Assembly: GCA_963737905.1 (NCBI GenBank)
Contig: CAVTUQ010000007.1
Coordinates: forward strand, 423,678 to 487,677
Direction of reading: 5' to 3'
Source of the DNA: an uncultured delta proteobacterium
GTDB lineage: Bacteria; Desulfobacterota; Binatia; UBA9968
DNA: 64,000 nucleotides
A program made the position numbers and the translations under genes. Of this stretch, positions 32,531 through 64,000 are shown one piece after another (the stretch's first letter is position 1; every line of letters starts with the position of its first letter). Below the pieces are notes generated by a model. The model did no database searches, had not been told where the DNA came from, and saw nothing but the letters and a program-made list of their open reading frames with translations.

Positions 32531-32578
32531 GTCGGGTGAAGAAGCTTTTCCTCCGGGAAAAAATCTGCAAGCCGAGGC

Positions 32579-34123: not shown

Positions 34124-34140
34124 TTTTCACCTCCTTTTTT

Positions 34141-45790: not shown

Positions 45791-46266
45791 CAAGCTCCGG
45801 ACAATCCGGAACCACTCGGCCGATCCTTGCCATGTTCCGTACCGAATGTGACACACAGGCAAACTGCTTTATTCTTGTTACGTAGTGCGGGCCAAGAAAC
45901 CGCCGGCAGGCGCGCGCTCGCCGTCGCTTTGACGACCACTCGCTCTAGCAGATGGAAAGAGAACGTGTCACTATTCAGAACATCGGACCGCTGTGGCCCG
46001 AGTCATAGCCCGGATAGTCACGCATGAGTCAAGTTCCCGGATGGGTGGCTAACCCGTCGTGCGGAGCCCCATGCGCAACAACCCACCGATTTATCCGACG
46101 AACAAGGAGAATAAGCATGAAGCAGGACGCACGCAAAAATTCGCATAGGCGCAAGAGACAAAAGAGGCGCCTTGCTATGAGGAAGTACATGGCGGACAAG
46201 AAATCAAAGGGGGTGGTAGCGTGAAAATGAAAGGACTAAGAGATTAAAGGGGCTACTCTTTTTATC

Positions 46267-46760
46267 TCAGCTCCTCATCTCGCTCACTGCGGGTCGGCCC
46301 CGTGGACGCATGGTACTTTCAAGTCCAAACTGACTTGCGATCTTCGTCTGCCAGTCTGATTCTCCAAAAGGTCTTTGGCGATTCACTGACGCACGAATTG
46401 AAGCCAGTTGGCTCGCTGATAATGGTTCGTCCACCTGTGCTAACCAGTTCACCTCGACTTCCACTGGACAGGGATCGGCCAGCTCGCTCCGGCACCAACT
46501 TGACCCTGGCCAATCATCTACCGACGCCGCCAAGCCCGATCTAACTGGATTCTGCAAAACATAGCGCAGCACCATTAGCAAATGTTCGTCGCGCTGCACT
46601 GGAAAACTCTTAAATCGGCCCTGCCATACATGCCCGCTGCTGCCGTAATGCTGTGATAACGCCGTACATGACTGGTCAAAAGCCATTGCATGAATCGGCT
46701 CAATGCAGTTTGATGCGCCGGTTCGAGAACGAGATGAAAGTGATTGGGCATCAGGCAAGC
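46267..46760 (-). pseudogene. RAYT (REP-associated HUH tyrosine transposase) type 1, central and C-terminal part
   Basis: CLMPNHFHLVLEP..LSRFMQWLLTSHVRRY..GHVWQGRFKSF..RYVLQNPVRSGL..RPRGRP; frameshift about 46655; N-terminus detached. Confidence 0.85.
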
Positions 46761-46863
46761 GGGAATTTACTGATCTTTTTTGGGACGCCAGACATCGAGT
46801 CTTAGCCGACTTCGACATCTTGAACGGAGCGCAGCGGTGGACGACTCGAACGATTGGAACTGG

Positions 46864-47229
46864 CTATCCTCGGCCTCTAGGACTTGGCCCGGTGCGAACT
46901 CGCCCTGGTTGTAAGACAGTAAAGCTTCCGATCAGGCGTTGTCCTCGTCGCCGTACGACTTCAACCACCGTGGCGGGGAGGCTACGCCGTACACGGGCCG
47001 GGAAACGGATAAAAATTACACCACCTGTCTTCTCCATCTTAGCGTAGACTAACTGACCGAAATCCTTGTCTTCGGTAATCAAGAGGCGGCCTTCTCTAAC
47101 GGCTCGTTCCATGACGTCCTGGTCTTCTTCACGCGGTGACACTTCAGCGATTGCTACGACGTCGTGATCTGCAGAACGAAGAGCTCGTACGACCGCAAAA
47201 TCGCAGCTCTCGTCGGCGAGAAAGCGCAT
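46864..47229 (-). CDS. DUF5615 PIN-like toxin
   Basis: MRFLADES..LITEDKDFGQL. Confidence 0.9.
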   Translation of the reverse strand: MRFLADESCDFAVVRALRSADHDVVAIAEVSPREEDQDVMERAVREGRLLITEDKDFGQLVYAKMEKTGGVIFIRFPARVRRSLPATVVEVVRRRGQRLIGSFTVLQPGRVRTGPSPRGRG

Positions 47230-47232
47230 CGA

Positions 47233-47487
47233 CTATCGGTGAGTCTGGGTTTTTTTTCGCGGCGTCACGAGCAAAGTTTCTTCGTGAGCCAACGTATCCG
47301 CTGCATAGCCTATGGCCGCTTGAATATCTTGACGTGAGAGACGAGGATAGGCGTCGACCAGATCATCCTCAGTCGCACCTTCGCTAAGCTTCCTGAGGAT
47401 TAGCTCAACAGGGATGCGGGTTCCGCGGATGACTGGTTTCCCTAACATCACCCTTGGATTGACTTCTATACGATCCGTAACTGTCAT
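47233..47487 (-). CDS. DUF433 antitoxin
   Basis: RIEVNPRVMLGKPVIRGTRIPVE..YPRLS..DIQAAIGYA. Confidence 0.93.
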   Translation of the reverse strand: MTVTDRIEVNPRVMLGKPVIRGTRIPVELILRKLSEGATEDDLVDAYPRLSRQDIQAAIGYAADTLAHEETLLVTPRKKTQTHR

Positions 47488-47687
47488 GACACGTTCCCCA
47501 AATGGCTCACATATTCTGGCACTCGCAACGGCACTAGGTCAAGCAGCTAGCCGACTATCGATGGGTTCAGAAGATTAGGGTTTATCGCGTTCGATCCCGC
47601 TGGCAACGCGTTACGCCGCCAATTCTAGATCTTTGGTTTGTGGACCGAGACCATTGGAACAACTGGAACTTTTGTAAACCGCCCTTA

Positions 47688-47980
47688 AGTTACTTTGAAC
47701 TCTTGAACCTTGAACTTTGAACCGCCGCAAGGCTTTGACGGAGCGCAGCGATTGAACCCTTCGATAGACTCGGGGCAGGCTTCTGGAACGTTTGGAACAG
47801 GCGCAAGCCAAAATAGTCCTGAGGTTTATGAAAGATCGTCGCGCGACCATTTCCTCGGTTGATCACGTGATAAACAAAACCAGCTTGCAGCCCACGCGGG
47901 ATACTCGGCATCAGCAGCGTCTATCACACCGCTACATGCGATCGCAACGGGCGAAAAGTAGCCTGTCCCCCTTTATTCCC
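47688..47980 (-). repeat. repeat module A: GAAC array + RAYT1 5' fragment + element end
   Basis: Near-identical to 51748-52035; encodes MPSIPRGLQAGFVYHVINRGNGRATIFHKPQDY; ends AAAAGTAGCCTGTCCCCCTTTATTC. Confidence 0.9.
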
Positions 47981-48010
47981 TTCTCTAATTTTCTCCGGGA
48001 CCAAAACACT

Positions 48011-48229
48011 TTAAGTGGTTTGGGTGGGACCGATGCCTTCAATAACGACCTGACGTAACGTTTCTTTTCCGCCGAAGCGCTTGATAGCATCCAGAATTTC
48101 TATGCCGGCCAACTTTCCGTCGGCGTCGTAATCAGCCGCTATCCCTTCTCCTAGATGCTTGGTGGTCACGGTTGTTTCGCGAAACGTGATACTTAGCGCA
48201 TCGACTTCTGAATCGTAACTAATCTTCAT
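48011..48229 (-). CDS. DUF2283 family antitoxin
   Basis: MKISYDSEVDALSI..DYDADGKLAGIEILDA. Confidence 0.9.
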   Translation of the reverse strand: MKISYDSEVDALSITFRETTVTTKHLGEGIAADYDADGKLAGIEILDAIKRFGGKETLRQVVIEGIGPTQTT

Positions 48230-48242
48230 ATAGTGTCCCTCG

Positions 48243-48497
48243 TCAAGAGTAATAAGTATAAACCGTCACAACTACGATTTCATCCGCTTCTTCCACGAAA
48301 ATTGGCCGGACTTCTTTGGTTGCATAGAGCCTCTTATTCCATTCTCGGTTAAACGGAAATATCTTGCGGCACTCCATGCGGCCGAGTTCCGCCGGTTCCC
48401 ATCGTCTCGTCTGTATCGTATCCTCCACCTCGGCAACTGTAAATCCTCGCTTGGCGATATAACTCAACGCATGCGCCGAGAGTCTTATGGGTTTCAT
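48243..48497 (-). CDS. DUF4258-like toxin
   Basis: IRLSAHA..RG.T..EVE..I..IVVVTVY. Confidence 0.82.
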   Translation of the reverse strand: MKPIRLSAHALSYIAKRGFTVAEVEDTIQTRRWEPAELGRMECRKIFPFNREWNKRLYATKEVRPIFVEEADEIVVVTVYTYYS

Positions 48498-48611
48498 TTA
48501 GAATTGATCTATAGCAGGAGACGCCGATTGCTGCGAGTCAGCTGAATGTCCCGGACTGAACGGAGCGAAGCGGTTAAACGACTGGAACAATTTGGAACCG
48601 GCTGCTGTTTA

Positions 48612-48791
48612 AATGAGTGATGTGCCAAACGTAACCAGGCAGGAAGTAACGGTTCGCGCGCGGCATCGATTTTTCTTAGAAGGCCCTTTTCACGGTTAAA
48701 AAGCGGCTTCTAAGCTCTTAAACGACGCCTCTTATGCCTACCTTAAGTTGATAAATCAAGCAGTCGGCCGGGTCCGACCCAAACACGGTTC
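48612..48791 (-). pseudogene. RAYT type 2 5' fragment with its terminal repeat
   Basis: 48666-48612 translates MPRANRYFLPGYVWHITH; GGTCCGACCC-AAACACGGTTC at 48771-48791 is the inverse of 61591-61615. Confidence 0.8.
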
Positions 48792-48965
48792 AATGTCGAT
48801 TGGAACGGCTAGAACGGATTGATCTCCGTGATGAACGGAGCATGGCGATTGAACGGCTGGAACGATTGGAACGGCCGGAACTAATCTTCGATGGCAGCGG
48901 AGCGCTCGCTCAACGCCAAGAACTCAAGACAGTTATCGAATGAGTGGGGGTAGATCTCTTCTATT

Positions 48966-49217
48966 CTATGTCCGTGCCGAAGACTCAATTACAGGCAGGC
49001 GAATCTGACGGGAACGGCTCCGAGTCTTAAGGTTAGCCTCGATCCGTTTAAGCACAGCCGCCTTGTAGTAGCGCTCCCCGCATTGCTCGCAGACACCCGT
49101 CGGTACACCATCAACCAAGGCAACCAATTTGTCACCCCAGAAACAGGGTTTCTGGATCCGACGCTCTGTTACACGACCTCCGCAAAAAGTGCAATCATCG
49201 TACTCGTATTTAGCCAT
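48966..49217 (-). CDS. YgiT/MqsA-type zinc-finger antitoxin
   Basis: CTFCGG..VPTGVCEQCGERYY. Confidence 0.88.
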   Translation of the reverse strand: MAKYEYDDCTFCGGRVTERRIQKPCFWGDKLVALVDGVPTGVCEQCGERYYKAAVLKRIEANLKTRSRSRQIRLPVIESSART

Positions 49218-49218
49218 C

Positions 49219-49395
49219 GTTACCTCCTCCGCTTTCTTTCATCAACCCATCTGGGTTGGGATGGAATATAAACCGTAATAAGCCTGACTCTCCTCGAAGG
49301 GGTTTGTCCGCAAACAACATACGCTCATCTTCAGCATGGCCACTAAACTCATAGTTTCCCAAACGAATCTGTTGTTTGATCCACTCGATATCCAA
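49219..49395 (-). pseudogene. DUF4258 toxin with internal deletion
   Basis: YEFSGHAEDER is joined out of frame to VVCGQTPSRRVRLITVYIPSQPRWVDERKRRR*. Confidence 0.75.
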
Positions 49396-49665
49396 TCATC
49401 AATTCTACCATGGGTCAGGAGGAGACGAAAACGACACGGGGCCGTTCAGTCCGGGCCGATGAAAAATGAATCAATGATGCGATCGGGTCGAAGACCTAAT
49501 GAAGCAAGCGGAAGAAGGGAGTCAAAGGCGAAGAGAGGGCCTGAGTCCGAAGTTCCGCGCCGTCTGAATTCCAATTGGTCACCGCTTAGGGTTCGAAAAA
49601 ATGGCAACGGTTGCTATGTGTCTACCTTAAATTCTACCTGATGTTTTGGTTTGTGGGATCGGAAA

Positions 49666-49860
49666 AAACTCGAAACTAGAAACCCGAAACTAGAAACTGC
49701 GACTATTCAGCCGCTTTGGAAACCTCCGCAGCCACAGTCAACAGCGCCAGTTGACGCTTTTGGTCCTACAGGCGATGCGAAACTCAGGCTTGGACATTCC
49801 CTGATTTGTTGGTTGCGGACTTGGGGACAACTTGAAACTCGAAACCAGAAACTAGAAACG
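49666..49860 (+). repeat. two direct 7-bp GAAACYN arrays
   Basis: AAACTCG AAACTAG AAACCCG AAACTAG (49666-49700) and 49829-49860. Confidence 0.8.
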
Positions 49861-50021
49861 GCAAACGTGCCACTCCATTCCTACCCCGGATTTTTGGAAA
49901 AACTATCTTCTCCGAATCGCATTCAGGGCAACAGTCGATCCTTGGGGGTCTGAAAAGTGTCTCTATGGATTCTCAAGAGATTGGCAACCGCCTCGATGAA
50001 CGAATCTATGGATTGTAGGAA

Positions 50022-50327
50022 TTAACTGAGAACCACCGCCTTAAAGGCGGTGGGTTCCGTTCCGTCTAAAGACGGCTCAAGGGCGATATACGTCCCATGA
50101 ACACTCACACAGTTCGTCGCCACGTCAAGCACGCAGCCCTGCGCCAACACATCACAAACATCGCGACCCTCTCTGCCTTTACCATTGCCGACAAACTTTC
50201 GTCACGGATCTTTGCTTCATCTTCCCTTAAACCCCCAGCTTCAGCTGGGGGAGCAAGCGGATCATCAACCTTGAAGGCTTCGCCTAAAGGCGAGGGATTT
50301 TCTCCCATTCCCAGAAGGAGACATTAA
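50022..50327. mobile_element. non-autonomous palindrome-rich element (IS200/IS605-end-like)
   Basis: Hairpins ACCACCGCC-TTAAA-GGCGGTGG, CCCCCAGC-TTCA-GCTGGGGG and TCGCC-TAAA-GGCGA; ATTAA at both ends; no transposase. Confidence 0.55.
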
Positions 50328-50356
50328 GTGTCTGGCATCCGAAGGCCAGACACAAT

Positions 50357-50815
50357 TTATCGTTTCCTCGTGTCGAGGACCCGACCGTCAGACAGGATTA
50401 GCTGAGCGCCGCCATCGGGTGTAAACGACTGTGCCACAACCTGTGGACCTTTGCCTCGTAATGCGTCACAAATCCGTTCGTGTAACTCGACAAACGAGAT
50501 TGACGCGTAGTCTCTGCCAGAAACAACCAGCAATGGGTTGACGTACTCTTGGGGTGAACGAGCGGTACCTTTCTGGGTTTCCTCCGTGACGATCACAACC
50601 GCTCGCATGAACTCGCCATCTCCATCTGCGTTTACCTCCATCGGAGGCGGCAGGAATTCAGTGTAGGGGTCGCCATCCTCGTAACCAAACCTCCGAGTTG
50701 GCGTACCAATGTGCGCGGGAACCCCTTGAGCGGTAACTCTGATCCATTCGCAACCGACGTAAAAATCCCCATACCGGGGGAACTGCAGGGACCAAAGTGT
50801 GGCGTAAATGCTCAT
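50357..50815 (-). CDS. hypothetical protein
   Basis: 152-aa plausible ORF (AQGVPAHIG, QEYVNPLL); followed by hairpin GTGTCTGGC/GCCAGACAC. Confidence 0.7.
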   Translation of the reverse strand: MSIYATLWSLQFPRYGDFYVGCEWIRVTAQGVPAHIGTPTRRFGYEDGDPYTEFLPPPMEVNADGDGEFMRAVVIVTEETQKGTARSPQEYVNPLLVVSGRDYASISFVELHERICDALRGKGPQVVAQSFTPDGGAQLILSDGRVLDTRKR

Positions 50816-50846
50816 GGTGTTTTCTGCGTAGTGCTGGTGGCGTTTC

Positions 50847-51254
50847 CTATACTGTCCAATCGTTGACGGACAACCCTTCGATATGTTGGAAGTCGGTATC
50901 GCGGGTTATCAGCACGGCATCTAATGCCAGAGCGGTCGCAGCAATCCACAAATCATTCTCATCCAAAACCAGTCCTTTTTGTTGGCGTGTTAGCTTAATC
51001 TTCGCATAATGATCGCCCGCCGCTTCAGGAACTGACTCGCACGGAATAACAGCGAATAGAGGCCCCGCTTGGCCTTCCAGATCTTGCCGGCGCTTGCTTC
51101 GCGGAAGCTGCTCAATACCATAACGAATTTCACCCCGGACAACCGTGCAAATCACAACTCTATCCGCAGGTGCGAGAGAGGACATGCGAGCATCTAGCTT
51201 CGAATGCTTCCTCATCAAGTCACTGAAAGCGTTGGTGTCCAGCAAGAAAATCAT
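50847..51254 (-). CDS. vapC: VapC PIN-domain toxin
   Basis: FLLDTN, GEIRYG, NDLWIAATAL, LITRDTDF. Confidence 0.92.
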   Translation of the reverse strand: MIFLLDTNAFSDLMRKHSKLDARMSSLAPADRVVICTVVRGEIRYGIEQLPRSKRRQDLEGQAGPLFAVIPCESVPEAAGDHYAKIKLTRQQKGLVLDENDLWIAATALALDAVLITRDTDFQHIEGLSVNDWTV

Positions 51255-51520
51255 CGCCCGTTGTCCGCTTCGTCTTTTTCAAACTCACCCTGCATGCGCA
51301 CGGGCAATCTTCCTTGTCTAATCAATTGCTCCAATTTATCAACGTCATCCGGGTTAAGATCTGGCAAACTCCGCATCACCTTGAGGATCGTCGGCGCCGA
51401 CCCGGGTTGAAAGTCTGGGTGCAAGGCCTCCACCGAAACACTAACAGCTTGCCACTCTGAATACGGAAGCGACTCTTCGAGTTCGATTATTTTTCCTTTA
51501 GCCACACCTTTATACGTCAT
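51251..51520 (-). CDS. putative antitoxin of the VapC
   Basis: MTYKGVAKGKIIELEESLP; ATGA overlap with vapC; GGAGG RBS. Confidence 0.75.
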   Translation of the reverse strand: MTYKGVAKGKIIELEESLPYSEWQAVSVSVEALHPDFQPGSAPTILKVMRSLPDLNPDDVDKLEQLIRQGRLPVRMQGEFEKDEADNGR

Positions 51521-51747
51521 CGTTACCTCCCAAAATTAGCCCAGGGAACCTCATCATTTCACAGCGCTAGCCGGTCGGACATGACTATTATAACTACGGG
51601 CAGTCGAAATCTACAGCCGACCCTATGCCGCGAAGCGAACGTCGAAGCAACCCGGTTAAACGACTTGACGGGTTCAATATCAAATAAACGAAGCGGTTCG
51701 ACAACTGAACAGCTTCAACGATTTCAACGGGGCGGAACCGACCCAAG

Positions 51748-52035
51748 AGTTACTTTGAACTCTTGAACCTTGAACTTTGAACCGCCGCAAGGCTTTGACA
51801 GAGCAAAGCGATTGAACTGATAGATCGGGTCAGGCGTCTGGAACGTTTGGAACAGGCGCAAGCCAAAATAGTCCTGAGGTTTATGAAAGATCGTCGCGCG
51901 ACCATTTCCTCGGTTGATCACGTGATAAACAAAACCAGCTTGCAGCCCACGCGGGATTCTCGGCATCAGCAGCGTCTATCACACCGCTACATGCGATCGC
52001 AACGGAAGAAAAGTAGCCTGTCCCCCTTTATTCCC
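51748..52035 (-). repeat. repeat module B (copy of 47688-47980)
   Basis: Same GAAC array, same RAYT1 5' fragment, same end motif. Confidence 0.9.
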
Positions 52036-52131
52036 TGCTGGCTCCCAAGGCTTCCGCTTGTTGCGAACCAAAAAGGAAACCCGCGCAAGATTTTCCCGTA
52101 TCGACATGAAGCGGGATTTGTCTTGGCGTAA

Positions 52132-52371
52132 CTACACAAGTCCAGATTTGACAGCCAATCTTGATCTTGACCCTGTCATCGCCTCGACACGATTTGCCTT
52201 AGCGGCTTTTTTCGCCGGTTCCATTTTCACAGCGGGAAGCCCCAATCTCCTCGCTGCCCGCGCACATGAAGGGCATACAAGCATATTGAGCAGAACAACG
52301 CCTCCGTCTTCCGTGGTGACGTGATACAGTGTTTTTGTAAAGTGGGTGCAGCGCCGACAAACAAACTCCAT
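52132..52371 (-). CDS. small CxxC..CxxC zinc-binding protein
   Basis: CRRC..YHVTTEDGGVVLLNMLVCPSC..ARRLGL; AAGGAG RBS; paralogue of 61246-61440. Confidence 0.7.
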   Translation of the reverse strand: MEFVCRRCTHFTKTLYHVTTEDGGVVLLNMLVCPSCARAARRLGLPAVKMEPAKKAAKANRVEAMTGSRSRLAVKSGLV

Positions 52372-52567: not shown

Positions 52568-53240
52568 CGCTGCACGACCCAGCATACCGCCCGCTCCCTA
52601 ACATTGCCTATAACATCAGCAACAAAATCATAGAACTATGCGTATTGTGGTTATCTAGACTAGAGCGGCGCCAACTTTACACCGAAACTCGCCGTTCCAA
52701 CGAGTCCGGAAGTTTCGTTGGCCGGCACAATAAATTGTGGGCTGCTGGATGAAATAGAAGTTCGAACCCACAAAACTGCTTGTGAGCATTGAGAGGAGCC
52801 GAAGCTGGTAGTTACTGTCCAGATGACCGCACGACAACGAAGTAGTCGAGCGCGAAAAAATTTAGCTAGAGACTTTTGAATATAACCAAGACAAGTATAT
52901 CCAGCATCGACACTAGCGGAAGGGAGAATACTCAAGATAGATTTTATCAGTAGATCAAGCGGAACACGGACAAACTCGAAGCGGGTCGGGAACTGGCGCG
53001 TTAGTCGCTCAAAACGTCATGGGTTGGAAAAGTGTCGACCGGCTGGACATCGGCAAAGCTGGTAAACGCGATCAGTATCCGGCAAGCCGGACAAGCTCGG
53101 CCGCTGGCACTCCGCCGATGTGCGGCACTACTCGACGAATTCCGCCGGCCCTAGCTCATAGCGCCTGGAATGGACCTTGTGCTTTGGGAAAGATACGTGA
53201 AAGAACTCTCGTACCCCACATCGCCCACAACCACGAAACC

Positions 53241-54386
53241 CTACGCCTTCGGATACGTCGGCACCATTTCCGGACGATAAACCCACTGCTTGAGCGGTCT
53301 GCCCTCTTTGAGATTTCTCAGCTCCCGCTCCCAAATCTTGCGCAGTAGAAACACGCCGCGGTCGCTGCGGCCGAGGTGTTCGTTGCCGCGCGGGGCGATC
53401 GCGCCTTGACCGGTCTGCGCGACTTCGTCTTCGAGCATGACGAAGTCGACGCGATTCGGATCGATATCGTCGAGCCTAAGTTTTCCCGCAAGGATGGCTC
53501 GGACTAACTCCGGCCGATCCAGTTCCGCCTTTGTCCGCATCTCCCGCCGTTCTTGGATCCATACCCGTCCGCGCTCTCCTGTGAGCGGGATGGCGCGCAC
53601 CTCGAAGTGAATATGGCGTTCATCGTCTACCGGAACTTTAAATAACATCACATCGGCCCGCTTGATCTCCGGATCAACCACCTGACCGTTGGTATAGTTG
53701 ATGTTGGGCATGCCGAAAAAAACGGTGACTTCCTTGCCGTCGGGATATTTTGCATGGCGCTCGACGCCCCACTCGGATTCTTCGACGGTAATCGTCGGAT
53801 CGCCCAACACGATATGATCTTGCACCGAATCGCGGTGGCGCCGGTGCACGAAGCGCACATGCGCGCTATCCAATGAATTCTCGACATTGTTGAAGTAGTT
53901 GCAGATCCGTCTGAGTCCAGCGACATCGAGGGAGATATCGGCGCTTTCCATCTTGGGGTAACGCGGCAACGGCGGCGGCTCGCCCTCGCCAAAATAGGCG
54001 AAAATCAGGCCGAGGTATTCTTGCACCGGATAAGCAGGCACGCGGACCTTTGGCGCAAAGGGTTCCGCTTCGGCTGGCTGCTCAATGCATCGTCCCGCGC
54101 CATCGTATTTCCAACCGTGATAGAAACAGCGGATAAAGTCGCCCTCGACCCACCCGGCGGAGAGCTGTGCGCCGCGGTGGGCGCAGCGATAGCCGACTAA
54201 ATGCGCCGCGCCGCTCTCGCCGCGATAGAGCGTAAACTCTTCATCCATGATCCGAATCGGCAGCGCTTGGGCAACCGAAAGCTCATGGGAGCAACAAACC
54301 GGCTGCCAGAACATCCGCAGGTAACGCCCGGCAAGAGTTCCAGGTCCGGTGTGAACGAAATCGTCAAAATTCATCGCCGGCGCCAT
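53241..54386 (-). CDS. Rieske non-heme iron oxygenase alpha subunit (phthalate dioxygenase/LigX-like), copy 1
   Basis: GPGTLAGRYLR..W, CAHRG..CFYHGW, ENSLDSAHVRFVH, EHLGRSDRG. Confidence 0.92.
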   Translation of the reverse strand: MAPAMNFDDFVHTGPGTLAGRYLRMFWQPVCCSHELSVAQALPIRIMDEEFTLYRGESGAAHLVGYRCAHRGAQLSAGWVEGDFIRCFYHGWKYDGAGRCIEQPAEAEPFAPKVRVPAYPVQEYLGLIFAYFGEGEPPPLPRYPKMESADISLDVAGLRRICNYFNNVENSLDSAHVRFVHRRHRDSVQDHIVLGDPTITVEESEWGVERHAKYPDGKEVTVFFGMPNINYTNGQVVDPEIKRADVMLFKVPVDDERHIHFEVRAIPLTGERGRVWIQERREMRTKAELDRPELVRAILAGKLRLDDIDPNRVDFVMLEDEVAQTGQGAIAPRGNEHLGRSDRGVFLLRKIWERELRNLKEGRPLKQWVYRPEMVPTYPKA

Positions 54387-54526
54387 AATAGTTTATCCCG
54401 AGCGGGATTGTCCAGTGAATGTATTGGGCCACCATGTTTTGTTTGAGGGTCGCTGGCAGGGTCAGGCCTTGCAGCAGCGTATTTTCAACTGCTCGCTTCA
54501 GATTCCTTCAACCGATGGCAGGGGTC

Positions 54527-54582
54527 TATCACACAGCCGCCTGCGATAGCCACGGGGAAAAAGTAGCCTGTCCCCTTTATTC
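54527..54582 (-). repeat. RAYT1 element-end motif (copy E)
   Basis: TCTATCACAC..TGCGAT..ACGGGG-AAAAAGTAGCCTGTCCCCTTTATTC. Confidence 0.85.
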
Positions 54583-54800
54583 CCCCAGCGTTTACATACG
54601 TGCTTGAGGTGTAGATTGCAGGCAACCGTTTCTTGGCAGCAAGTTCCACGATCTGCTTTTGATTGGCGACGAATAGTCCGGTCGGATCCGCCGTCATGGT
54701 GAGAGCGTTGGCACGCGCCTTGGTCGCCCGTTCGAACGCCCTTGCCAAATCATTGGCAGCCGGCACCTCCATGATGTGAAGCTGGATCTGCAGGTAAGGG
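54583..54800 (-). pseudogene. internal fragment of a PF04392-like ABC binding protein
   Basis: LQIQLHIMEV..QIVELAAKKRLPAIY..YVNAGG is cut exactly at the element-end motif. Confidence 0.8.
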
Positions 54801-55018
54801 GCCGCGGCCGGGAATCTACATTGAGGATTAATAATCCTCGTGTCGCCGGATTCAATTGCACTCGTTTTCATCTCTGGTCTTTTTTAGGCGTGGGTCCACA
54901 GCGCGATTTTCACCAAACACTTGTGCGATTGACTACTCGCCGGTCCGGCGATATAGCTCCCGTCACAGAAAAAGGGTGTTTAAAATTCCTATACGTACCA
55001 CTGAGCGAGCACGAACAC

Positions 55019-56248
55019 ATGGACATCGTGATCATCGGCGGCGGCATCGGCGGGCTCACACTCGCGCTCTCCCTGCACCTGCGCGGCATCCCCTGCCGCG
55101 TGTACGAGAGCGCGCCGGAGGTGAAGGAGCTGGGCGTGGGCATCACGCTGCTGCCCCACGGCATGCGCGAGCTAACCGCGCTCGGCCTCGGGGAGGCACT
55201 GGCGACCCAGGGGATCGAGAACCGCGATAGCTGCTTCTTCAATCGCTTCGGCCAGCTCATCTACGCCGAGCCGTGCGGCCGGGCCGCGGGCTACCCGGTC
55301 CCCGAGGTCGGCATCCACCGCGGCCGGTTGCATCTGACCCTCTGGCGCGCCGCGATGGAGCGGCTCGGCGCGGCCAGTGTCCTCACTGATCACCAGTGTA
55401 TCGGGCTCGACCAGAACACCCGGGACGTGACGCTGTACTTCCGATCGACCGCGACCGGCGCGACGCGCGCGTCCGTTACCGCCGACATCGTGATCGCGTG
55501 CGACGGGGTGAACTCAGCCGTGCGCCGCCAGTTCTACCCGGGCGAGGAGCTCTGCTTCGGCGGCATCAATACCTGGCGCGGGGTCACGCGCGCCAAGCCC
55601 TTCCTGACCGGCCGCAGCTACGTGCGCATCGGCTCGATCCAGTCCGGCAATCTCGTGATCTATCCGATCGTGGACGATGTGGACGGGCAGGGGCAGCAGC
55701 TCATCAACTGGACCGCACAGGTCGCGCAGCCCGGCTACGAACGGAACGATTGGAACAAGCCGGGCCGGCTCGAGGACTTCCTGCCCATCTTCGCCGGCTG
55801 GACGTTCCACTGGCTCGACGTGCCCGACCTGCTCCGGCGCTCCGACGTCATCTTCGAGTACCCCATGGTGGACCGGGAGCCGGTCGATCGCTGGACATTC
55901 GGGCGCGTCACCCTGCTGGGCGACGCCGCGCACCCGATGTACCCGCGCGGCTCCAACGGCGCGGCCCAGGCCATCCTCGACGCGCGCACGCTCGCCGATT
56001 GCCTGGCCGCGGGGGGCGACCCCTTGGCCGCGCTCTCCGCCTACGAGGCCGTGCGCTCGGGCCCGACGGCCCGGGTCGTGCGCACCAACCGCGAGCATCC
56101 GCCGGACTACCTCATCCGCCGCGTGGAGGAGCTGGTGGGCGATGCGCCCTTCGACGATCTCGATCGCTACATCACCCGCGCCGAGCTCCAACGGCTCTCG
56201 GACAAGTACAAGCGCATCACCGGCTTCGCCCCGGAGCACGTGACGTAG
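55019..56248 (+). CDS. FAD-dependent monooxygenase (flavin-dependent oxidoreductase)
   Basis: IIGGGIGG, DGVNSAVR, LLGDAAHPMYPRGSNGAAQAILDA; visibly high GC. Confidence 0.92.
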   Translation: MDIVIIGGGIGGLTLALSLHLRGIPCRVYESAPEVKELGVGITLLPHGMRELTALGLGEALATQGIENRDSCFFNRFGQLIYAEPCGRAAGYPVPEVGIHRGRLHLTLWRAAMERLGAASVLTDHQCIGLDQNTRDVTLYFRSTATGATRASVTADIVIACDGVNSAVRRQFYPGEELCFGGINTWRGVTRAKPFLTGRSYVRIGSIQSGNLVIYPIVDDVDGQGQQLINWTAQVAQPGYERNDWNKPGRLEDFLPIFAGWTFHWLDVPDLLRRSDVIFEYPMVDREPVDRWTFGRVTLLGDAAHPMYPRGSNGAAQAILDARTLADCLAAGGDPLAALSAYEAVRSGPTARVVRTNREHPPDYLIRRVEELVGDAPFDDLDRYITRAELQRLSDKYKRITGFAPEHVT

Positions 56249-56450: not shown

Positions 56451-59400
56451 TCAGCCCAACTCCTTCAACTCCGCTTCAGCACTTTCCAGCCACAATCCCA
56501 TTTCCATCTGCCGCATCAGCGCGACGCCTTTGTGGAGATGCTCCTTCGCCAGTGGCAAATTACCGCTTCGCCGATAAAGTTTTTCCAGACCAACGTGGCA
56601 ATGCGCGATGAGCGGGCGCATGCCGAGTTCTTCAGCGAGGGTGAGAGCTTGGTGATAGTGGTTTTCCGCCTTCCCGATATCAAGCGGATCTTCGCACGCC
56701 GCGATCTCGCCAAAGAGCCGAAGAGTGTACGCCTCGTATCCTCTCTCTTTGTGCTGACGGGCGAGACCCAGGGCGCGCTGAGCGGCGGCACGGGCATCCG
56801 CTTCCCGCCCGGCCAACAGATGCGCTTCGCTCAACGAGATGGTCCGCAGTGATTTGCCCTCCACGGTCCCGGTCACGGCGGGGCGCTCGACGGCCTCCTC
56901 CAGCAGGGGAATTGCCTCAGCACTGCGTCCAGAGAGCGCATAGGCGTAGCCTAGGGTGGAACTCACTGCGTGAAAGAGAGGCGGGCTGTCCACTCCCTGA
57001 CAGACCTCCAGGGCGTGTTCGAGCGCGAGAGTCGCCTGGTGAAGATCCCCCCGCCCGAGATGCAGAAGACCCATCGCTCGATACGTCACGGTAACGCTGT
57101 AAGGAAGGCCGGCCGTCTCCGCTATGTGGATGGCTTCTGTGCAAGGGGCAACGGCTTCGATGAACTCCCCGCGCTCAGCCAGCGCTAAGGCTAGCGAGCT
57201 CCGGGAGAACGCGAAGGGTAGACCCAGTCCTCCAAAGCGCTCACGAACCACTGGGCTGTCGAGGGGCACCAGGTTGCGTCTGTGCGACTCTATTGCCTGA
57301 TGATAATTCCCCAAGCAATAGTACGCCCATCCGAGAAATTGAGTTGTCAGAACCTCCAGACCGTAATCGTCTAGGGTTCTGGCCACTGCGATTGCCCGTT
57401 CACAAGCCGTGACGGCTTGTTCATACTCACCCTGTGCCAAGAGCTCTCTCGCTATGAACACACTAACCCGCGCCAACCGGCGTTGATCTCCTAAAGCATT
57501 TGCCAGAGCTTCGGCTACGCGCAGGTGTTCAAGAGCCGCTCGCGTTCTCCGAGCGGCGACAGCGAGACACGGAGGTTGAAGTGTAGATCGACAGCCTGTT
57601 CGCGCATCTCGCGACTCTCGGGCAGATGCCCTAGAGCAGTCAGTGCTTGCTCGAAGTATGATGCCGCTTCTCGAAACGCCGAGCGGGCATCCGCCTTGGC
57701 GCCGGCCTGGCGGAGATAGGTCAGGGCTTTATCCCATACCTCCCCCCTCGCCGCGTGATGCGCGAGGCGCTCGACCTGCTCGATCAGCCGATCGGGATAT
57801 AGCGTCTCGATGGCTTCCACGATCTTCGCGTGCAGGGCGCGCTGGCGCTCGTGGAGAAGGCTTCCGTACGCCACTTCGTGGGTGAGCGCGTGCTTGAAAG
57901 TGTATTCCAGATCAGGAAACAGACTCGTCTCGTAAAGGAACTCCGCCGCTTGGAGATGGGTAAGGCTGCGGCGGAGTTCCTCGTCAGATAACTCGGTGAT
58001 GGCCTGCAGGAGGGAGAAGGGAACATCCTTGCCGATGACCGCGGCTGATTGCAGGAGCTGCTTTTCCTCAAGCGGGAGCCGGTCAATGCGCGCGGCAAGC
58101 ACGGCTTGAACCGTAGCCGGCACCTGGGTGCTCTCCACCTTTTTCTCCAGATGATAATTCCCTCGCTCGCCCGCCAGAACTTTTGTCTCCACCAGGGTTC
58201 GAACACTCTCCTCAAGGAAAAAAGGGTTCCCCTCGGTGCGTTCGATCAAAAGCTGCTTCGAGGGACTGAAGTCCGTGGTCATTCCCGAGAACTGAATCAA
58301 GAATCTCCCCGGCGCTTTCGGGCGGTAGCGGATCAAGCCGCAGTTGGGTGTAGTAAGTCTTGTTGGCCCAACCATGCTGGTATTCTGGACGATAGTTGAC
58401 CAGGAGGAGCAGCCTCGCCGTCGGGAGACTTTCCACCAAGCTCTCCAGCATCGCCTGGGTCTCGGAGTCGATCCAGTGAAGATCCTCGAATAGCAGGATC
58501 AGAGGCTGGACCTGACTCTCTCGAAGCAACAGCCGCTTGACCGCGCCAAGAGTCTGCTGGCGGCGTTGGGAAGGATCGAGCGCCTGCCACATGCGGGTCA
58601 TCAACAGGCACATCTAAAAGTGCCAGGAAGGCCGGTAGCGTGGACTCCAGAGATTTATCCAAGGTCAGCAGCTTGCCGGTAACCTTCTCGCGAATTTCGC
58701 GCTGATCGTCGCGGTCCTGAATTTTAAAGTAGGCTTTGAGAAGATCGATGACCGGCAAATAGGGCGTGGCTTTGCCATAGGAGACCGAGCCGCTTTCGAG
58801 AATCAGCCACCCCTGGGTTCGATGCGAGTGGATGAACTCGAAGAACAGCCGTGACTTACCCAGACCAGGTTCTCCTACTACACCGACCACCTGACCATGG
58901 TCTGAGCGCGCTTGTTCAAGTGCTTTTCGAAGCTGCTCGGTTTCAGCATCGCGTCCGACAAAGCGAGTCAATCCGCGCGCGGCCGCGGCTTGCAGGCGAG
59001 AGCGTGTGGCTCCAACTCCCGTAACCTCATAAACTTCCACCGGCTCAGTTAATCCCTTGACGTTGACGGGGCCAAGTGACTTCACCTGCACATAACCTTC
59101 GGCCAGTCGAAGCGTACCGGCGTAATCAAAATCGATCCCGGCGTCGCCATCTGCTCCATGCGCGCAGCCAGATGGGTCGTCTGGCCAACCGCTGTGTAGT
59201 CCATCTTCAAGTCGCTGCCGATGGAGCGCGACCACTACTTCTCCGGAGTTCAAACCCACTCTTATCTGGATGGGAACACCCTCGGTCCGCCTCACTCCTT
59301 CAGCGTAGCGTTTCACCGACTCCTGCATTCTGAGCGCCGCATAGCAGGCCCGCACCGCATGATCTTCATGGGCCAGCGGCGCACCAAATAGCGCCATGAT

Positions 59401-59828
59401 CCCGTCGCCCATCACATTGTTGACTGTCCCTCATACCGATGCACTGCCTCCATCATGTGTTCGAGGATTGGGTCAAGGAGTTTTCGCGCGTCCTCAGGGT
59501 CGCGATCGGCGAGAAACTCCATCGAACCCTTCATGTCAGCAAACAAAACCGTTACCTGCTTGCGCTCCCCTTCAAGAGCGTTTTTTGAAATGAGAATTTT
59601 TTCGGCGAGGTGCCTGGGAGTGTACGCTTCGACCGAACCGAACTTTCCTGCGGTTACCAGCGCTGTCGGGGCAGCTTCGAGCAGTCGCTGTCCGCACTTC
59701 TTGCAAAACTTCGCGCCGAGCCGGGTTGCTCCACCGCAATTTGGGCAGACAACTTCAAGCCGAGAGCCGCAGTTCTCACAGAATACGGCGTCGCCTGGAT
59801 TTTGGGCCTGGCAATGAAGGCAGTTCAT
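56451..59828 (-). CDS. double zinc ribbon + class III adenylate/guanylate cyclase + AAA ATPase + TPR protein (several frameshifts)
   Basis: CxxC repeats, GERKQVTVLFAD, GDGIMALFGAP, GEPGLGKSR, FEDLHWID, YTFKHALT, TPR tail. Confidence 0.88.
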
Positions 59829-60039
59829 ATCGATGTCCCAAGTTGTCGAGTCGAAATGTTAAAGACAGTGCCGCTAACTTAGTCCCTGGGAGGTGACAGC
59901 GTCAAGAACAGCAATATCGGCTAGGATTGAACTGAACGACGCCTCAGACCTATCTCGCACTGGGAGCCTGGCGCGTGGCGTGGATTTGCGATATGGCGCA
60001 CCGGGAGATCATTCATGGCAAACAGCTTCGGCTATCGCT

Positions 60040-60275
60040 GGCGAGCACGGACAGACCGAAGCGTTTTTTTGCCTCGAAACGCCAGTGCAAATAACGGCGC
60101 CGATCGTGCATTCCGTTAGTTCCTTAGAGTTGAAAGTTCGGATCGACTTGCTCTTTCCTTGAACTCTTGAACCTTGAACTTTGAACCGCCGCAAGGCTTT
60201 GAACGAAGCGAAGCGGTTGAACGACTGGAACGATTGGAACTCGTCTCCGTTTGGGTAAGTGATGTGCCAAGCCAA
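60040..60275 (-). repeat. repeat module C: RAYT2 fragments split by the GAAC array
   Basis: WHIT remnant (about 60255-60270), GAAC module, then DRRRYLHWRFEAKKRFGLSV; shared with 62290-62490. Confidence 0.8.
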
Positions 60276-60467
60276 CGCGGTTCTGTCTAAAAAAGTGGAC
60301 AATCAATGAAAGAAAAATTAGGGGCCGAGCGTGATTGGTCGATCTTTCAAAGTACGAAAGGAAACCTGACCTGCAAACGGCTAGACCGAAGCCTAGTTTG
60401 ATGCTCGCCGCCGCTGACTATGGGTTGAAAGATTATCATTGAGAACCGAAGGGGGAATGCCTCAAAC

Positions 60468-60698
60468 TCAAGTCAGGCGGCCCGATTTGTCCCGCTCCTC
60501 AATGGCAAACTTGTAGGCCTCCCCAAAAGTCATCTTGTCCGCGTCTGGCAGGGCTGCTAACTCGGCCAGAAACCCAACAAACTCTTCCAGTGCAGCCTTC
60601 GCCTCGGGCGCTGTTAGTACAATAGGAATCCCGACCCGAATTGGGATGTGACCGATGGTATCGTACCACAGAACCGGCGTTCCTTTTTCGATTTCCAT
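60468..60698 (-). CDS. hypothetical protein
   Basis: MEIEKGTPVLWYD.. short ORF with plausible composition. Confidence 0.4.
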   Translation of the reverse strand: MEIEKGTPVLWYDTIGHIPIRVGIPIVLTAPEAKAALEEFVGFLAELAALPDADKMTFGEAYKFAIEERDKSGRLT

Positions 60699-61216
60699 GT
60701 GGATTACCCCTTCGCGAGTCAGGCTTCTGCATATCACCGGCCTTGACCTGGGCGCAAGGCGGAATTATGGACAGGCGGAATTATGGACAAGATTTTTCGT
60801 GGAAGCCGGACGGATGCGAAGACTTTGCGGAGCTGACCGAATAGTACAAAGCGACAAGTGAAACTAACACAGCAAATGCCGCTACGACCGCTGCTGCTGA
60901 GATGTACTGCCCTGAAGCCGCAGCTGAGATCGAAGAAGCGATCAGACCTTCTCGCACGTTACACTAACACGACAGAGCGCCCCGGAGTCTGCGAGCTACA
61001 AGGTCACGAGACAACGATTGTTGTAAGACTGCCCTGAAAGTGACGAGAGTTTGTAGATGATTGGCTTACAAAAACTTAGAACACGACCGGAATTTCCTTC
61101 ATCCATTACTACCGAATCGACGAGAGTCATTCCTTGTTTGGTCGACAAAATGCCTTCGTAATCCGTTAAAGGTTACGGATTTACCGATCCAATATTGGTG
61201 ACAATCACTCCCAATA

Positions 61217-61232
61217 TGGCATCTTGTTTGCC
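61217..61232 (+). promoter_or_regulatory. putative sigma54 promoter
   Basis: TGGCATCTTGTTTGCC (GG-N10-GC), about 14 nt before ATG 61246. Confidence 0.5.
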
Positions 61233-61245
61233 AGTGAAAGAAATC

Positions 61246-61440
61246 ATGAATCACACTTGTCAACATTGCGGCGAGTTGATTGTAGGTAACGCCTGGTTAC
61301 GAGTGCTTGATATGGTTGTTTGCTCCCTCTGTTTTATGGAAGCAAAGAGACTTCACCTTCATGCAGAGGAAATCAATATTGAAAGCAAACATCCTTCACC
61401 TCGAAACCGGCGGAGTCACCAGTCTCGACTCGGCATTTAA
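61246..61440 (+). CDS. small CxxC..CxxC protein, paralogue of 52132-52371
   Basis: MNHTCQHC..VLDMVVCSLC..AKRLHL. Confidence 0.6.
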   Translation: MNHTCQHCGELIVGNAWLRVLDMVVCSLCFMEAKRLHLHAEEINIESKHPSPRNRRSHQSRLGI

Positions 61441-61590
61441 TTGAAGCGCCTGGCTCTCCGGTATTATTTGGCTGACCTCCGATTCGCCACGTTGTGGCTT
61501 GCGGTAGTGATAGTTGGGTTCGCAGTCTCGTTTTACGTCTTACCGCGTGGCGTAATTTGGTTCGTGAGTGCGCTGCTCTTCTAATCCTGG

Positions 61591-62355
61591 GAACCCGTGT
61601 TTCGTGGGTCGGACCACGCTATCTACCTGGGTTTTCGAGGCTTTCATTCCACGGAAGCGTATTCTCCGAGCTTAGAGCCTTGTTTTCCCCAGTCAAATTG
61701 CGAGTGTAAGCTTCACTGGGCTCGCGCAGCGCATACGTTCCGTCTGCTTCCAGCACTTCCCGATGCGCGGCCTTGACGCCAAGATCGTTTTTGACCCTCT
61801 CAACAAAAGGCAAGCTCCCGACGGCGATCGCTTCAGACCAGCGATCATCGCGGAGCGCCAGCCGTTTTCCAGAGCTTGCTCAACCCATTGGCGGTGTGCT
61901 CTTTGAAAATCTCTCAGATCCGCAAACCCGCACAACCCGTCTAATCCTCAGGCTCTCACCTTGAACATTGAACTTGAACTTTGAACGATCGTTTATCTAA
62001 ACGTCTTGAACGGAGCGCTGCGGTTGCACGTTTGGAACAACTGGAAGGCTTCAGTATTCGCTAGCGCGAACCATATTTAAGTCAATGTACACGAGACAGC
62101 GATGCAGGTGCTCGTCGGCCTCAATTGCAGTGGCATGGTAGCGGTCCTCCCAAAACGCCCCGTGGCGCCCTTTGCGCTCGTTGTACTCCTGTGCCGTGCG
62201 GCCAGCAATGAACTGCATACTGTCGGCAATCACGTTTGGCCCGTGTCTTTGACCAAAAGATGAATGTGATTCGAGGTGACCATATAATCGAGCACGCAAA
62301 GACCGAAACGTTTTTTCGCCTTGAACAGCCAGTGCAGGTAGCGGCACCGATCGCG
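61591..62355 (-). pseudogene. RAYT type 2, central and C-terminal parts with terminal repeat
   Basis: YMVTSNHIHLL (HUH), GAFWEDRYHATAIE..YIDLNMVRA; interrupted at 61960-62050 by GAAC repeats; C-terminus ..WNESLENPGR* then GGTCCGACCC. Confidence 0.85.
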
Positions 62356-62357
62356 CA

Positions 62358-62650
62358 TTCCGTTAGTTCCTTAGAGTTGAAAGTTCGGATCGACTTGCTC
62401 TTTCCTTGAACTCTTGAACCTTGAACTTTTGAACCGCCGCAAGGCTTTGAACGGAGCGAAGCGATTGAACGACTTGAACGTTTGGAACAGGCGCAAGCCA
62501 AAAGTCTATGAAAGATAGTCGCGCGACCATTTCCTCGGTTGATCACATGATAGACCTTGCTGCCCACGCGGGATTCTCGGCACCAGCAGCGTCTATCACA
62601 CCGCTACATGCGATCGCAACGGGGGAAAAGTAGCCTGTCCTCCTCTATTC
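62358..62650 (-). repeat. repeat module D (RAYT1 5' end joined to RAYT2 body)
   Basis: Right part matches modules A/B; left part matches module C. Confidence 0.85.
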
Positions 62651-62676
62651 CCCACATCGCCCACAACCACAAAACC

Positions 62677-63822
62677 CTACGCCTTCGGATAGGTCGGCAC
62701 CATATCGGGCCGATAAGTCCACTGTTTGATCGGCTTGCCATCCGCCAGGTTGCGCAACTCTCGTTGCCAAATTTTCCGCAGAAGAAAAACCCCGCGATCG
62801 CTGCGGCCGAGGTGTTCGTTGCTGCGCACTGCGATTGCGCCTTGACCGGTCTGCGCGACTTCGTCCTCGAGCATGACAAAGTCGACGCGATTGGGATCCA
62901 CCTCGTTGAGATGAAGTTTTCCGGCGAGGATCGCCCGCACTAAATCAGGCCGGTCTTTCTCCGCTTGCGCGCGCATCTCGCGCCGCTCTTCGATCCACTG
63001 GCGGCCACGCTCGCCGGTAAGGCGGATCGCGCGCACTTCGAAATGAATGTGGCTATCGTCATCCACCGGGACTTTGAATACGATCACATCCGCCCGCTTG
63101 ATTTCCGCATCGACCACTTGACCGTTGATGAAGTTGATATTGGGCATGCCGAAGAAAAAAGTCAGATCCTTGCCGTCGGGATATTTGACGTAGCGCCGGA
63201 TGCCCCACTCGGATTCTTCCACGGAAACCACCGGGTCGCCCAGCACGATGTGATCATCGACCGCCTCCCGATGGCGCTGGTGTACGAAGCGGACATGGAC
63301 AGGGTCGAGCGAGTTATCGATGTTGTTGAAGTAGTTGCAAATGCGCCGCAGGCCGGCGACGTCCAGCGAGATATCGGGACGTTCGAAGCGCGGGTAACGC
63401 GGCAGCGCCGGCGGATCGCCCTCGCCGAGATAAGCGAAGATCAGTCCGATGTATTCTTTCACCGGATGACCCGGAATGCGCACTTTGTCGGCGAACGACT
63501 CACCCTCGGCCGGTTGTTCCACGCATTGTCCCGAGCCATCGTATTTCCAGCCGTGATAGAAGCAGCGGATGCACTCGCCTTCAATCGAACCCACCGATAG
63601 TTGTGTTCCCCGGTGCGCACAGCGCGACCCGACGAGATACGGAGCGCCGCTATCGCCGCGGTAAACCGTGAAGTCCTCGCCCAAGATGCGCACAGGCAGC
63701 GCCCTGCCGACAGGAAGTTCATAGGAACAACAAACCGGCTGCCAGAACGTCCGCAAGTAACGCCCGGCCAACGTTCCCGGTCCGGTGTGAACGAAATCGT
63801 CAAAATTCATCGCCGGCGCCAT
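62677..63822 (-). CDS. Rieske non-heme iron oxygenase alpha subunit, copy 2
   Basis: Same length (381 aa) and motifs as copy 1; DNSLDPVHVRFVH. Confidence 0.92.
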   Translation of the reverse strand: MAPAMNFDDFVHTGPGTLAGRYLRTFWQPVCCSYELPVGRALPVRILGEDFTVYRGDSGAPYLVGSRCAHRGTQLSVGSIEGECIRCFYHGWKYDGSGQCVEQPAEGESFADKVRIPGHPVKEYIGLIFAYLGEGDPPALPRYPRFERPDISLDVAGLRRICNYFNNIDNSLDPVHVRFVHQRHREAVDDHIVLGDPVVSVEESEWGIRRYVKYPDGKDLTFFFGMPNINFINGQVVDAEIKRADVIVFKVPVDDDSHIHFEVRAIRLTGERGRQWIEERREMRAQAEKDRPDLVRAILAGKLHLNEVDPNRVDFVMLEDEVAQTGQGAIAVRSNEHLGRSDRGVFLLRKIWQRELRNLADGKPIKQWTYRPDMVPTYPKA

Positions 63823-64000
63823 AATAGTTTATCCCGAGCGGGATTGTCCAGTGAATGTATTGGGCCACCATGTTTTGTTTGAGGGTCGCGGGCAGGGTCA
63901 GGCCTTGCAGCAGCGTATTTTCAACTGCTCGCTTCAGATTCCTTCAACCGATGGCAGGGGTCCATCACACAGCCGCCTGCGATAGCCACGGGGAAAAAGT
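63823..64000. repeat. duplicate of 54387-54564, ending in the RAYT1 end motif (cut by window edge)
   Basis: Two substitutions seen over about 178 bp. Confidence 0.9.

Follow-up and report, generated by a model that had tools for sequence, protein, structure and literature searches.

Positions 46243-64000 of the 64,000-nt stretch analysed here (the window, from contig CAVTUQ010000007.1 of assembly GCA_963737905.1, an uncultured delta proteobacterium) contain repeated copies of a motif that we identify as part of a RAYT-like Y1 HUH element of about 0.72 kb, namely its terminal inverted repeat and the stretch upstream of its gene. The ends of this RAYT-class element frame passenger genes, and one cargo-bearing unit is shared nearly unchanged between genera. 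We lean towards reading 46243-64000 as a set of decayed, partly cargo-bearing transposon copies on the same strand, located near a contig end in a zone that varies between strains and reshaped by recombination between repeats; an integron-like capture mechanism, of the kind suggested by an original prediction made for this DNA, is not supported.

The source assembly (G000) is a metagenome-assembled genome (MAG), 87% complete with 6.7% contamination, and the window ends where its contig, C7, ends. Nearly all genes of 46243-64000 are on the minus strand, and the array is read in that direction, with LE and RE denoting the left and right ends of an element. We use type-1 for the TIRYT-like Y1 gene and type-2 for a Y1 gene like that at C8:102-926. 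Comparisons covered 90 genomes of the family (23 genera) and 123 of the order, the tallies including genomes flagged as unpublished, as well as a cross-phylum scan with one genome per species that gave at least 594 relatives; ends were analysed in the best 80 of these (loci L118-L197), which come from Acidobacteriota, Nitrospirota, Planctomycetota, Elusimicrobia and others.

The 17-mer AAAAGTAGCCTGTCCCC within the motif occurs on the + strand exactly at 47954, 52009 and 54559 and with one mismatch at 62626, which makes four matches against 0.01 expected in shuffles. A fifth motif copy is truncated where the window and contig end, and here 63816-64000 is 98.9% identical over 185 nt to the repeat B1 (Table 1); the claim of five copies in one orientation is therefore confirmed as four full copies and a cut one. 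Also as predicted, a shortened and degenerate inverted copy lies at 46243-46263, 3 nt beyond the stop codon of the open reading frame (ORF) at 46267-46818, and homology between the copies ends abruptly, at ...TTTATTCCC. Read on the minus strand the motif is GGGAATAAAGGGGGACAGGCTACTTTT and stands at the 5' edge of each unit. While the copies are real, the repeats are longer than the 55 bp first reported: those of type A are of about 250-300 nt (47688-47984, about 297 nt, is 95% identical to 51748-52039 and 81% to 62406-62652), and those of type B, 53214-54585 and 62650-64000, are of 1.35 kb and 81% identical to each other. The two types have only some 62 nt in common, at the outer end. No further right end was found in the window at up to three mismatches, leaving a single, degenerate RE against five LEs.

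The ends of the element are a terminal inverted repeat of about 21 nt, AAAAGGGGACAGGCTACTTTT ... AAAAGTAGCCTGTCCCCTTTT, which frames the transposase gene. In A1-A3 the motif is followed, after about 60 nt, by an open frame starting MPSIPRGLQAGFVYHVINRGNGRATIFHKPQDY, and the 33-residue stub that it encodes is 88% identical to residues 1-33 of a protein of the related genome G088 and 64% identical to a paralogue in G000 (tblastn). The remainder of the type-1 gene is found at 46757>46267, from about residue 50 onwards; it contains the motifs NHFH and YVLQNPV and is frameshifted near 46650. The ORF 46267-46818 matches RAYT-like proteins (tblastn) and the NCBIfam model REP_Tyr_transpos (NF047646; 41 bits, E 1.3e-10, under the cut-off of 80), bearing out the proposed tie between the motif and a RAYT. 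A Pfam search of 46270-46818, where the gene is frameshifted, gave no domain and no C-terminal helix-turn-helix (HTH); longer Y1 paralogues in relatives have a weak Bac_DnaA_C match. The Pfam Y1_Tnp model has five matches in the whole genome and none on C7, the window fragments being too short or broken for it, and a near-full-length homologue in G042 (a 148-aa ORF) matches PF01797 with 57 bits. Because this remnant is followed by the inverted motif at 46243-46263, we read 47984..46243 as one element with both LE and RE, in which about 48 nt of the gene are replaced by about 1 kb comprising a GTTCAA-type tract, a DUF433/DUF5615 gene pair and a second repeat module.

RAYT-like genes located between long terminal inverted repeats, many of them with the consensus GGGGWSAS, are termed 'TIRtrons', and the genes 'TIRYT' (Di Nocera et al., 2013; PMC3733652); most TIRYT genes were placed in TnpA-Y1 subclass 2.1 (Quentin et al., 2018; PMC6006769). 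Features of this kind of element that are found here are a broken RAYT-like gene with the Y...NP signature (YVLQNPV), a frame of long inverted repeats in the place of REP hairpins, the sequence GGGGACAG, which is present in every copy and fits GGGGWSAS, and solo and paired repeats scattered in genomes. The C-terminal HTH-like extension (Bac_DnaA_C, HTH_23, HTH_28) that marks subclass 2.1 was not detected in the frameshifted window fragment. What differs is the presence of passengers, of co-oriented clusters and of near-identical units in different genera, none of which is mentioned in the portions of the TIRtron descriptions at hand. A resemblance to cyanobacterial HIP1 was also considered and set aside, GCGATCGC not being enriched genome-wide (388 copies).

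The ends are widely distributed. With at most one mismatch the 17-mer is present in 52 of the 90 family genomes and 18 of the 23 genera, while the backwards-read control gave one match overall. Some copies are solitary, some stand upstream of the gene and others form hairpin pairs with a spacing of 10-60 nt; the G048 gene has a hairpin built of two 17-mers on either side. G088 has three complete units of 731-733 nt that are 96-97% alike without homology in their flanks and are therefore discrete insertions, albeit with all three genes frameshifted. Among the best 80 of the at least 594 cross-phylum relatives, both ends were found at up to three mismatches in 41 loci, and forty end pairs span 711-955 nt with the flanks AAAA/GGGGAC...GTCCCC/TTTT (slashes mark boundaries). 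In L118-L197 the variants of the two ends co-vary, ACAGGCTAC being paired with GTAGCCTGT and ACATTCTAC with GTAGAATGT (AGG with CCT, ATT with AAT). Beyond AAAA/.../TTTT the left flank is purine-rich and the right flank pyrimidine-rich, which could be target or element sequence alike. Such conservation and co-variation across phyla imply that the ends are functionally constrained and the element widespread. No intact cognate gene for the trans-acting RAYT that the original prediction invoked was found in this 87%-complete assembly, where the best match to a type-1 gene is 44% identical and has a stop. All close type-1 copies examined are frameshifted or truncated, and at differing places, though those of G088 (C13:681-691 kb) are so alike; trans-mobilisation, gene conversion or programmed frameshifting could each be the cause.

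A search for LE plus stub found copies in 16 of the 90 family genomes, and wherever copies share a contig they are co-oriented and lie within 25 kb (four in G000, two and two in G015, three in G085, five in G087, four in G088); deletion derivatives of 285-350 nt are present in G015, G085 and G087. The stub junction GACTATT/TTGGCTTGCGCCTGTTCCAAACG, at which a GTTCAA repeat cuts off the gene, is identical in A1, A2 and A3 and in copies in G007, G009 and G015, and represents one event that was then spread or inherited; the neighbour behind the A-type LE is a different one in G007. The arrays of genus g23, in three species whose genomes are not independent, are syntenic (RE, two GAPDH genes and LE, with glyoxalase, TctC and NMT1 genes), the chief difference between them being the extent of decay of each element. 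An order that is fixed in this way speaks against ongoing shuffling, which the original prediction had envisaged, and in favour of long-lived residents; a fixed cargo order in relatives is also what that prediction had counted against itself.

The main comparison is with G015, which belongs to another genus of the family. On its contig C83, LE is followed by a 190-nt leader, a Rieske gene, a 27-nt tail, 133 nt, the last 30 or so type-1 codons and RE, making a complete LE..RE unit of 1.62 kb with an oxygenase gene in place of the transposase body. This unit is 98.8% identical to B1 over 1371 nt, with homology running from the outer edge of LE to the tail, and the two Rieske proteins agree in 377 of 381 residues. 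By comparison, the syntenic block to the left of the array is only 77-83% identical to G015, the identity of Rieske orthologues within the family is 73-80% and confined to their coding part, and nothing else in the 13-kb G015 locus is closely matched in G000. Of the 123 genomes of the order, just two contain the B leader, G000 in two copies and G015 in one. G015 has another unit (LE 9138..RE 12461) that resembles the A1..RE arrangement of the window: its stub and stub junction are the same, and between stub and RE it carries a DUF433 pair and a Phd/ParE pair, along with GAAC modules, a type-2 stub and an IS110 insertion. Its DUF433 protein is only 30% identical to that of the window, and the two genomes therefore have different toxin-antitoxin (TA) genes in the same frame. 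The IS110-family element, at L074 9350-10776 (G015:C83), is inserted exactly in the A-type stub/GAAC sequence, between CCTGAG and TCTATCGAAGG. Since complete units of this kind exist in G015, we conclude that these ends frame passenger genes that move between genomes.

The same Rieske module is present twice in the window, and its two boundaries are the same in all three contexts (G015, B1 and B2). B1 and B2 are 99% identical over the first 340 nt or so (LE, leader and about 80 nt of coding sequence), about 78% identical in the middle and again nearly identical (97-99%) in the last 27 nt after the stop codon. At GGGG/AATAGAGG the tail of B2 directly meets the LE of A3; between the B1 tail and A2 there are 1.17 kb of other DNA.

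Table 1. Features of the array at 46243-64000, in window coordinates
Feature	Position	Strand	Evidence or similarity
RE, degenerate inverted terminal repeat	46243-46263	-	sequence; 87.5-90% to RE regions of G015 units, ~100 nt
Type-1 gene, 3' two-thirds, from about residue 50	46267-46818	-	tblastn; NF047646
GTTCCA/GTTCAA ('GAAC') repeat module	46820-46865	-	
TA pair in LE..RE frame: DUF433 (47233-47487) and DUF5615/PIN-like (46864-47229)	46864-47487	-	Pfam
A1: LE (terminal inverted repeat GGGGGACAGGCTACTTTT), putative promoter, 33-codon stub 47911>47813, GAAC tract 47695-47722 and flanks	47688-47984	-	
TA pair DUF4258 (48243-48497) and DUF2283 (48011-48229)	48011-48497	-	91% identical copy C25:87674-88165
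GAAC modules and N-terminal stub of type-2 Y1 gene (48675>48613)	48557-48880	-	
YgiT/MqsA-type zinc-finger ORF, possible antitoxin	48966-49217	-	TIGR03831, E 1.1e-5
Short dispersed repeat	50024-50330	.	97-100% identical copies C11:4224-4489, C22:125519-125716
VapC PIN toxin (50847-51254) and overlapping 89-aa ORF upstream	50847-51520	-	
A2: LE, 33-codon stub, GAAC tract	51748-52039	-	95% to A1
B1: LE, 190-nt leader, Rieske oxygenase gene 53241-54386, 27-nt tail; fusion at transposase start codon	53214-54585	-	
FAD-dependent monooxygenase, 69% GC stretch	54776-56248	+	
Double-zinc-ribbon/adenylate cyclase/AAA_16/TPR gene, four overlapping frames, likely pseudogene	56451-59858	-	paralogues C4, C24
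Type-2 Y1 fragments and 8-unit GAAC tract	60042-60302	-	91.5% copy of 62289-62488
Type-2 (C8-like) Y1 transposase pseudogene with stops	61598-62356	-	
A3: LE (1 mismatch), shortened stub, GAAC tract	62406-62652	-	81% to A1/A2
B2: second LE-Rieske unit, gene 62677-63822, cut by contig end; tail adjoins A3 LE	62650-64000	-	

The mechanism that we envisage is as follows. Like the enzymes of the IS200/IS605 family, the transposase would use single-stranded DNA as its substrate at the two ends, and this mode would favour one strand and give rise to co-oriented copies. In some copies passenger DNA (the Rieske oxygenase gene, the TA pairs) may have replaced the transposase body, giving non-autonomous units that an intact enzyme could still move and that could spread between genomes. 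Recombination among dispersed repeats, both LEs and GTTCAA tracts, would then have duplicated and deleted segments at this locus and removed all REs but one, and the resulting blocks of LE, stub and cargo would resemble cassettes.

Several points weigh against this account. No transposition event, circle or empty site has been observed, and when the empty site of the G015 Rieske unit was sought in four genomes of the same genus its flanks were not conserved there. The 3' boundary of the Rieske module, GATGTG, is common to G015, B1 and B2, which purely random decay does not predict, and strand bias alone does not explain why copies cluster within 25 kb. The putative LE promoter, TTGCGA-16-GATAGA, was read by eye and is absent from the list produced by a σ70 consensus scan; that scan places another site immediately 5' of each Rieske start. 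The array lies at the end of a MAG contig, and independent contigs confirm only part of it. Contigs from two other studies (X3, X10) break exactly at 54585, and these breaks are ambiguous: the X10 contig continues for 158 nt that are unlike the window, which could be an empty site or an LE variant under the 90% likeness limit of the public-run check, which was made with short Logan contigs from soil metagenomes.

A bolder form of this reading is that the cross-phylum RAYT-like family, of a class usually treated as immobile, is a gene shuttle, in which 21-nt ends and a built-in promoter frame passengers (an oxygenase gene, TA pairs) in place of the transposase; these would be moved in trans, in one orientation near resident copies and across genera, yielding integron-like arrays by single-stranded DNA HUH chemistry; we put this forward tentatively, as a minority possibility.

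Comparison with known systems helps to place the element. Like IS200/IS605 elements and their non-autonomous PATE derivatives, it is small, encodes a Y1 HUH transposase, has left and right ends that are asymmetric and occurs in deletion derivatives, here of 285-350 nt; insertion of IS200/IS605 elements is strand-biased, takes place 3' to a short, defined target sequence and leaves no target duplication. It differs from IS200/IS605 in that its protein belongs to the RAYT branch and its ends are a true inverted repeat without subterminal hairpins of their own, the LE folds scoring z 0.0 to -1.75 against shuffles. The RAYT branch is usually regarded as single-copy and domesticated, moving only short REP/REPIN sequences, and the G048 gene between two-17-mer hairpins, like the similar hairpins scattered in many family genomes, recalls classical REP/REPIN-RAYT systems. 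In contrast to a classical REPtron, a single-copy gene flanked by REP hairpins of which the genome has many, the gene here is multi-copy, in relatives too, and decayed; the window has five LEs, no hairpin and half-sites in one orientation, there are few copies in G000, and the conserved GTAG is located inside the arm rather than at the foot of a hairpin. With integrons, CALINs (clusters of attC sites lacking an integrase) and ISCR capture the array shares small, co-oriented, TA-rich units and a repeated boundary sequence, but it has neither an attC hairpin nor an adjacent IntI, and the sequence repeated at its boundaries is a transposon end, which lies 5' of the units. A Y2 rolling-circle gene was not seen here, no search having been aimed at IS91/ISCR genes.

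Of the rival explanations, the one closest to the original prediction is that of an active capture platform, in which the LEs and the single RE, or GAAC tracts as surrogate ends, are live, a RAYT-like enzyme acting in trans mobilises nested LE-and-cargo units and thereby builds and reshuffles the co-oriented array, and TA modules keep it in place. Complete LE-cargo-RE units, one of them 98.8% identical between genera, a Rieske module with the same two boundaries in three contexts, the clustering and common orientation of copies on every contig that has at least two of them, and the different neighbour behind the A-type LE in G007 would all fit such a platform. We nevertheless think it unlikely, since no intact type-1 gene was found in the assembly, one degenerate RE stands against five LEs, the order RE-GAPDH-GAPDH-LE is kept in three g23 species, and the stub junction reflects one inherited or spread event rather than repeated capture. 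Nor was an excision junction seen among the joints listed from public metagenome contigs, an RE-LE circle junction included. Nothing shows that a trans-acting RAYT built or shuffled this array, which has a single RE and for which no intact cognate gene was found in the assembly.

A somewhat less probable rival is segmental duplication alone, in which an ancestral [Rieske-LE-stub] block and an A block were copied by unequal crossing-over between direct repeats, without transposition in this genome. B is followed by A both times, directly (B2-A3) or after 1.17 kb (B1-A2), the divergence is similar at about 80% (with A1 and A2 95% alike), and the block borders fall at repeats, either LEs or GAAC tracts. 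What this leaves unexplained is the 98.8% identical unit in another genus and the 99/78/97% identity mosaic of B1 and B2, and we give it little weight next to the decayed transposon copies that we favour.

The GAAC repeats had been proposed as capture sites, and they are also what would make the array an integron relative (a CALIN), with the tracts as unusual attC-like sites for an IntI of the same contig. Counting as a cluster three or more TKGAAC/GTTCMA hexamers, we found 353 clusters genome-wide against three in a reversed control; 173 of these are in inverted pairs (75 of the form GTTCAA..TTGAAC and 12 of the opposite one), and 122 lie within long open frames, though such frames make up 86% of the genome. 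Being genome-wide and mostly intergenic, the clusters are a general intergenic repeat family and not an array-specific site, and the proposal that they serve for capture is not supported. Their genome-wide hairpin form is typified by the stand-alone palindrome at 37281-37359 (GTTCAA x4 ... TTGAAC x3; z -6.2). Within the array the tracts mark junctions, all eight point one way, and fragments of the type-2 Y1 gene lie beside them (48675>48613, 60105>60043 and 62356>61598).

The array is indeed without an integrase, as first noted; the contig is not, having a true IntI gene at C7:226498-227442 (TIGR02249, 456 bits against a cut-off of 265), some 245 kb away, which would suit a CALIN only if attC sites were present. 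In the surrounding region (C7:222190-227442; L014 14189-19479) there are lexA upstream and two genes for 23S-rRNA-IVS (four-helix-bundle) proteins, each lying between inverted tracts of four GTTCAA repeats, and there is no obvious cassette array beside intI. That IntI, the seven GAAC clusters within 4.3 kb upstream of it and the succession of TA pairs and GAAC modules both in the array and at C25 are what speak for a CALIN. The array's tracts are, however, one-sided direct repeats that show no stronger folding than shuffles (z 0.1 to 2.0), the stand-alone palindromes have the polarity GTT...AAC and not AAC...GTT, and the 353 clusters are mostly intergenic, those near intI flanking the 23S-IVS-protein genes. 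The absence of attC noted in the original prediction holds: folding against shuffles revealed no attC-like hairpin among the array repeats, no palindrome recurs at cargo or unit borders, and Rfam gave no match on 44-64 kb at E up to 1. We regard the CALIN explanation as very improbable.

The chance that the array is an assembly artefact, in which repeats caused a chimeric join of several loci or strains, is just as slight: the MAG is contaminated, the contig stops within a repeat (B2), C17 bears a near-identical second copy of part of the window and metagenome contigs join GAAC tracts in many alternative ways, but the copies differ from one another (A1/A2 by 5%, A3 by 19%, B1/B2 by 19%) and all have unique flanks, a 660-nt contig of run X1 (possibly the source sample itself) covers 54087-54746 without a difference, and the same building blocks occur in a comparable layout in G015. 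Many of the GAAC-tract joints in metagenome contigs probably come from other loci or organisms. The second copy (G000:C17:50397-70727) is collinear with window 16858-45272 and 96-98% identical to it but gapped, 27056-36422 being among the gaps; it has no motif copy, stops where the variable stretch begins and reflects either a strain mixture in the MAG or a large duplication. Synteny of the window with G015 and G088 breaks off at about 44835, the start of that stretch.

The remaining cargo is mixed. Three of the four TA pairs originally predicted are supported (DUF433/DUF5615, DUF4258/DUF2283 and VapC with its upstream ORF), and the YgiT/MqsA-like zinc-finger ORF may be a fourth antitoxin. The cargo is not all co-oriented, contrary to what had been stated: most of it is on the minus strand, but the FAD-dependent monooxygenase gene at 54776-56248 is on the plus strand. 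The latter (NF005720, 548 bits) lies in a kilobase of 69% GC, against about 54% for the window, and this stretch looks foreign. A cyclase/AAA/TPR gene is spread over four overlapping stop-free frames, the double-zinc-ribbon ORF making up its first piece; the paralogues of this gene, two each on C4 and C24, are 73-75% identical. The repeat of about 300 nt at 50024-50330 has many matches at contig ends in G007 and is probably the end of another mobile element.

For annotation, the lesson is that TA-rich, 'cassette-like' arrays can be transposon graveyards rather than integrons. For the RAYT class, usually seen as domesticated and single-copy, the member described here is a multi-copy element, a discrete unit of about 0.72 kb whose ends are conserved across phyla, and it has derivatives in which passenger genes take the place of the transposase between intact ends, one of them nearly identical in two genera. 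Literature searches on TIRYT/TIRtron, RAYT and IS200/IS605 passenger genes, which gave access to parts of the sources, found no description of passenger-carrying TIRtrons. If such units are mobilised in trans, they would constitute a route of gene transfer for which we found no description in the RAYT class, and their two co-varying 21-nt ends would provide a simple substrate pair for studying DNA recognition by HUH enzymes of the RAYT branch.

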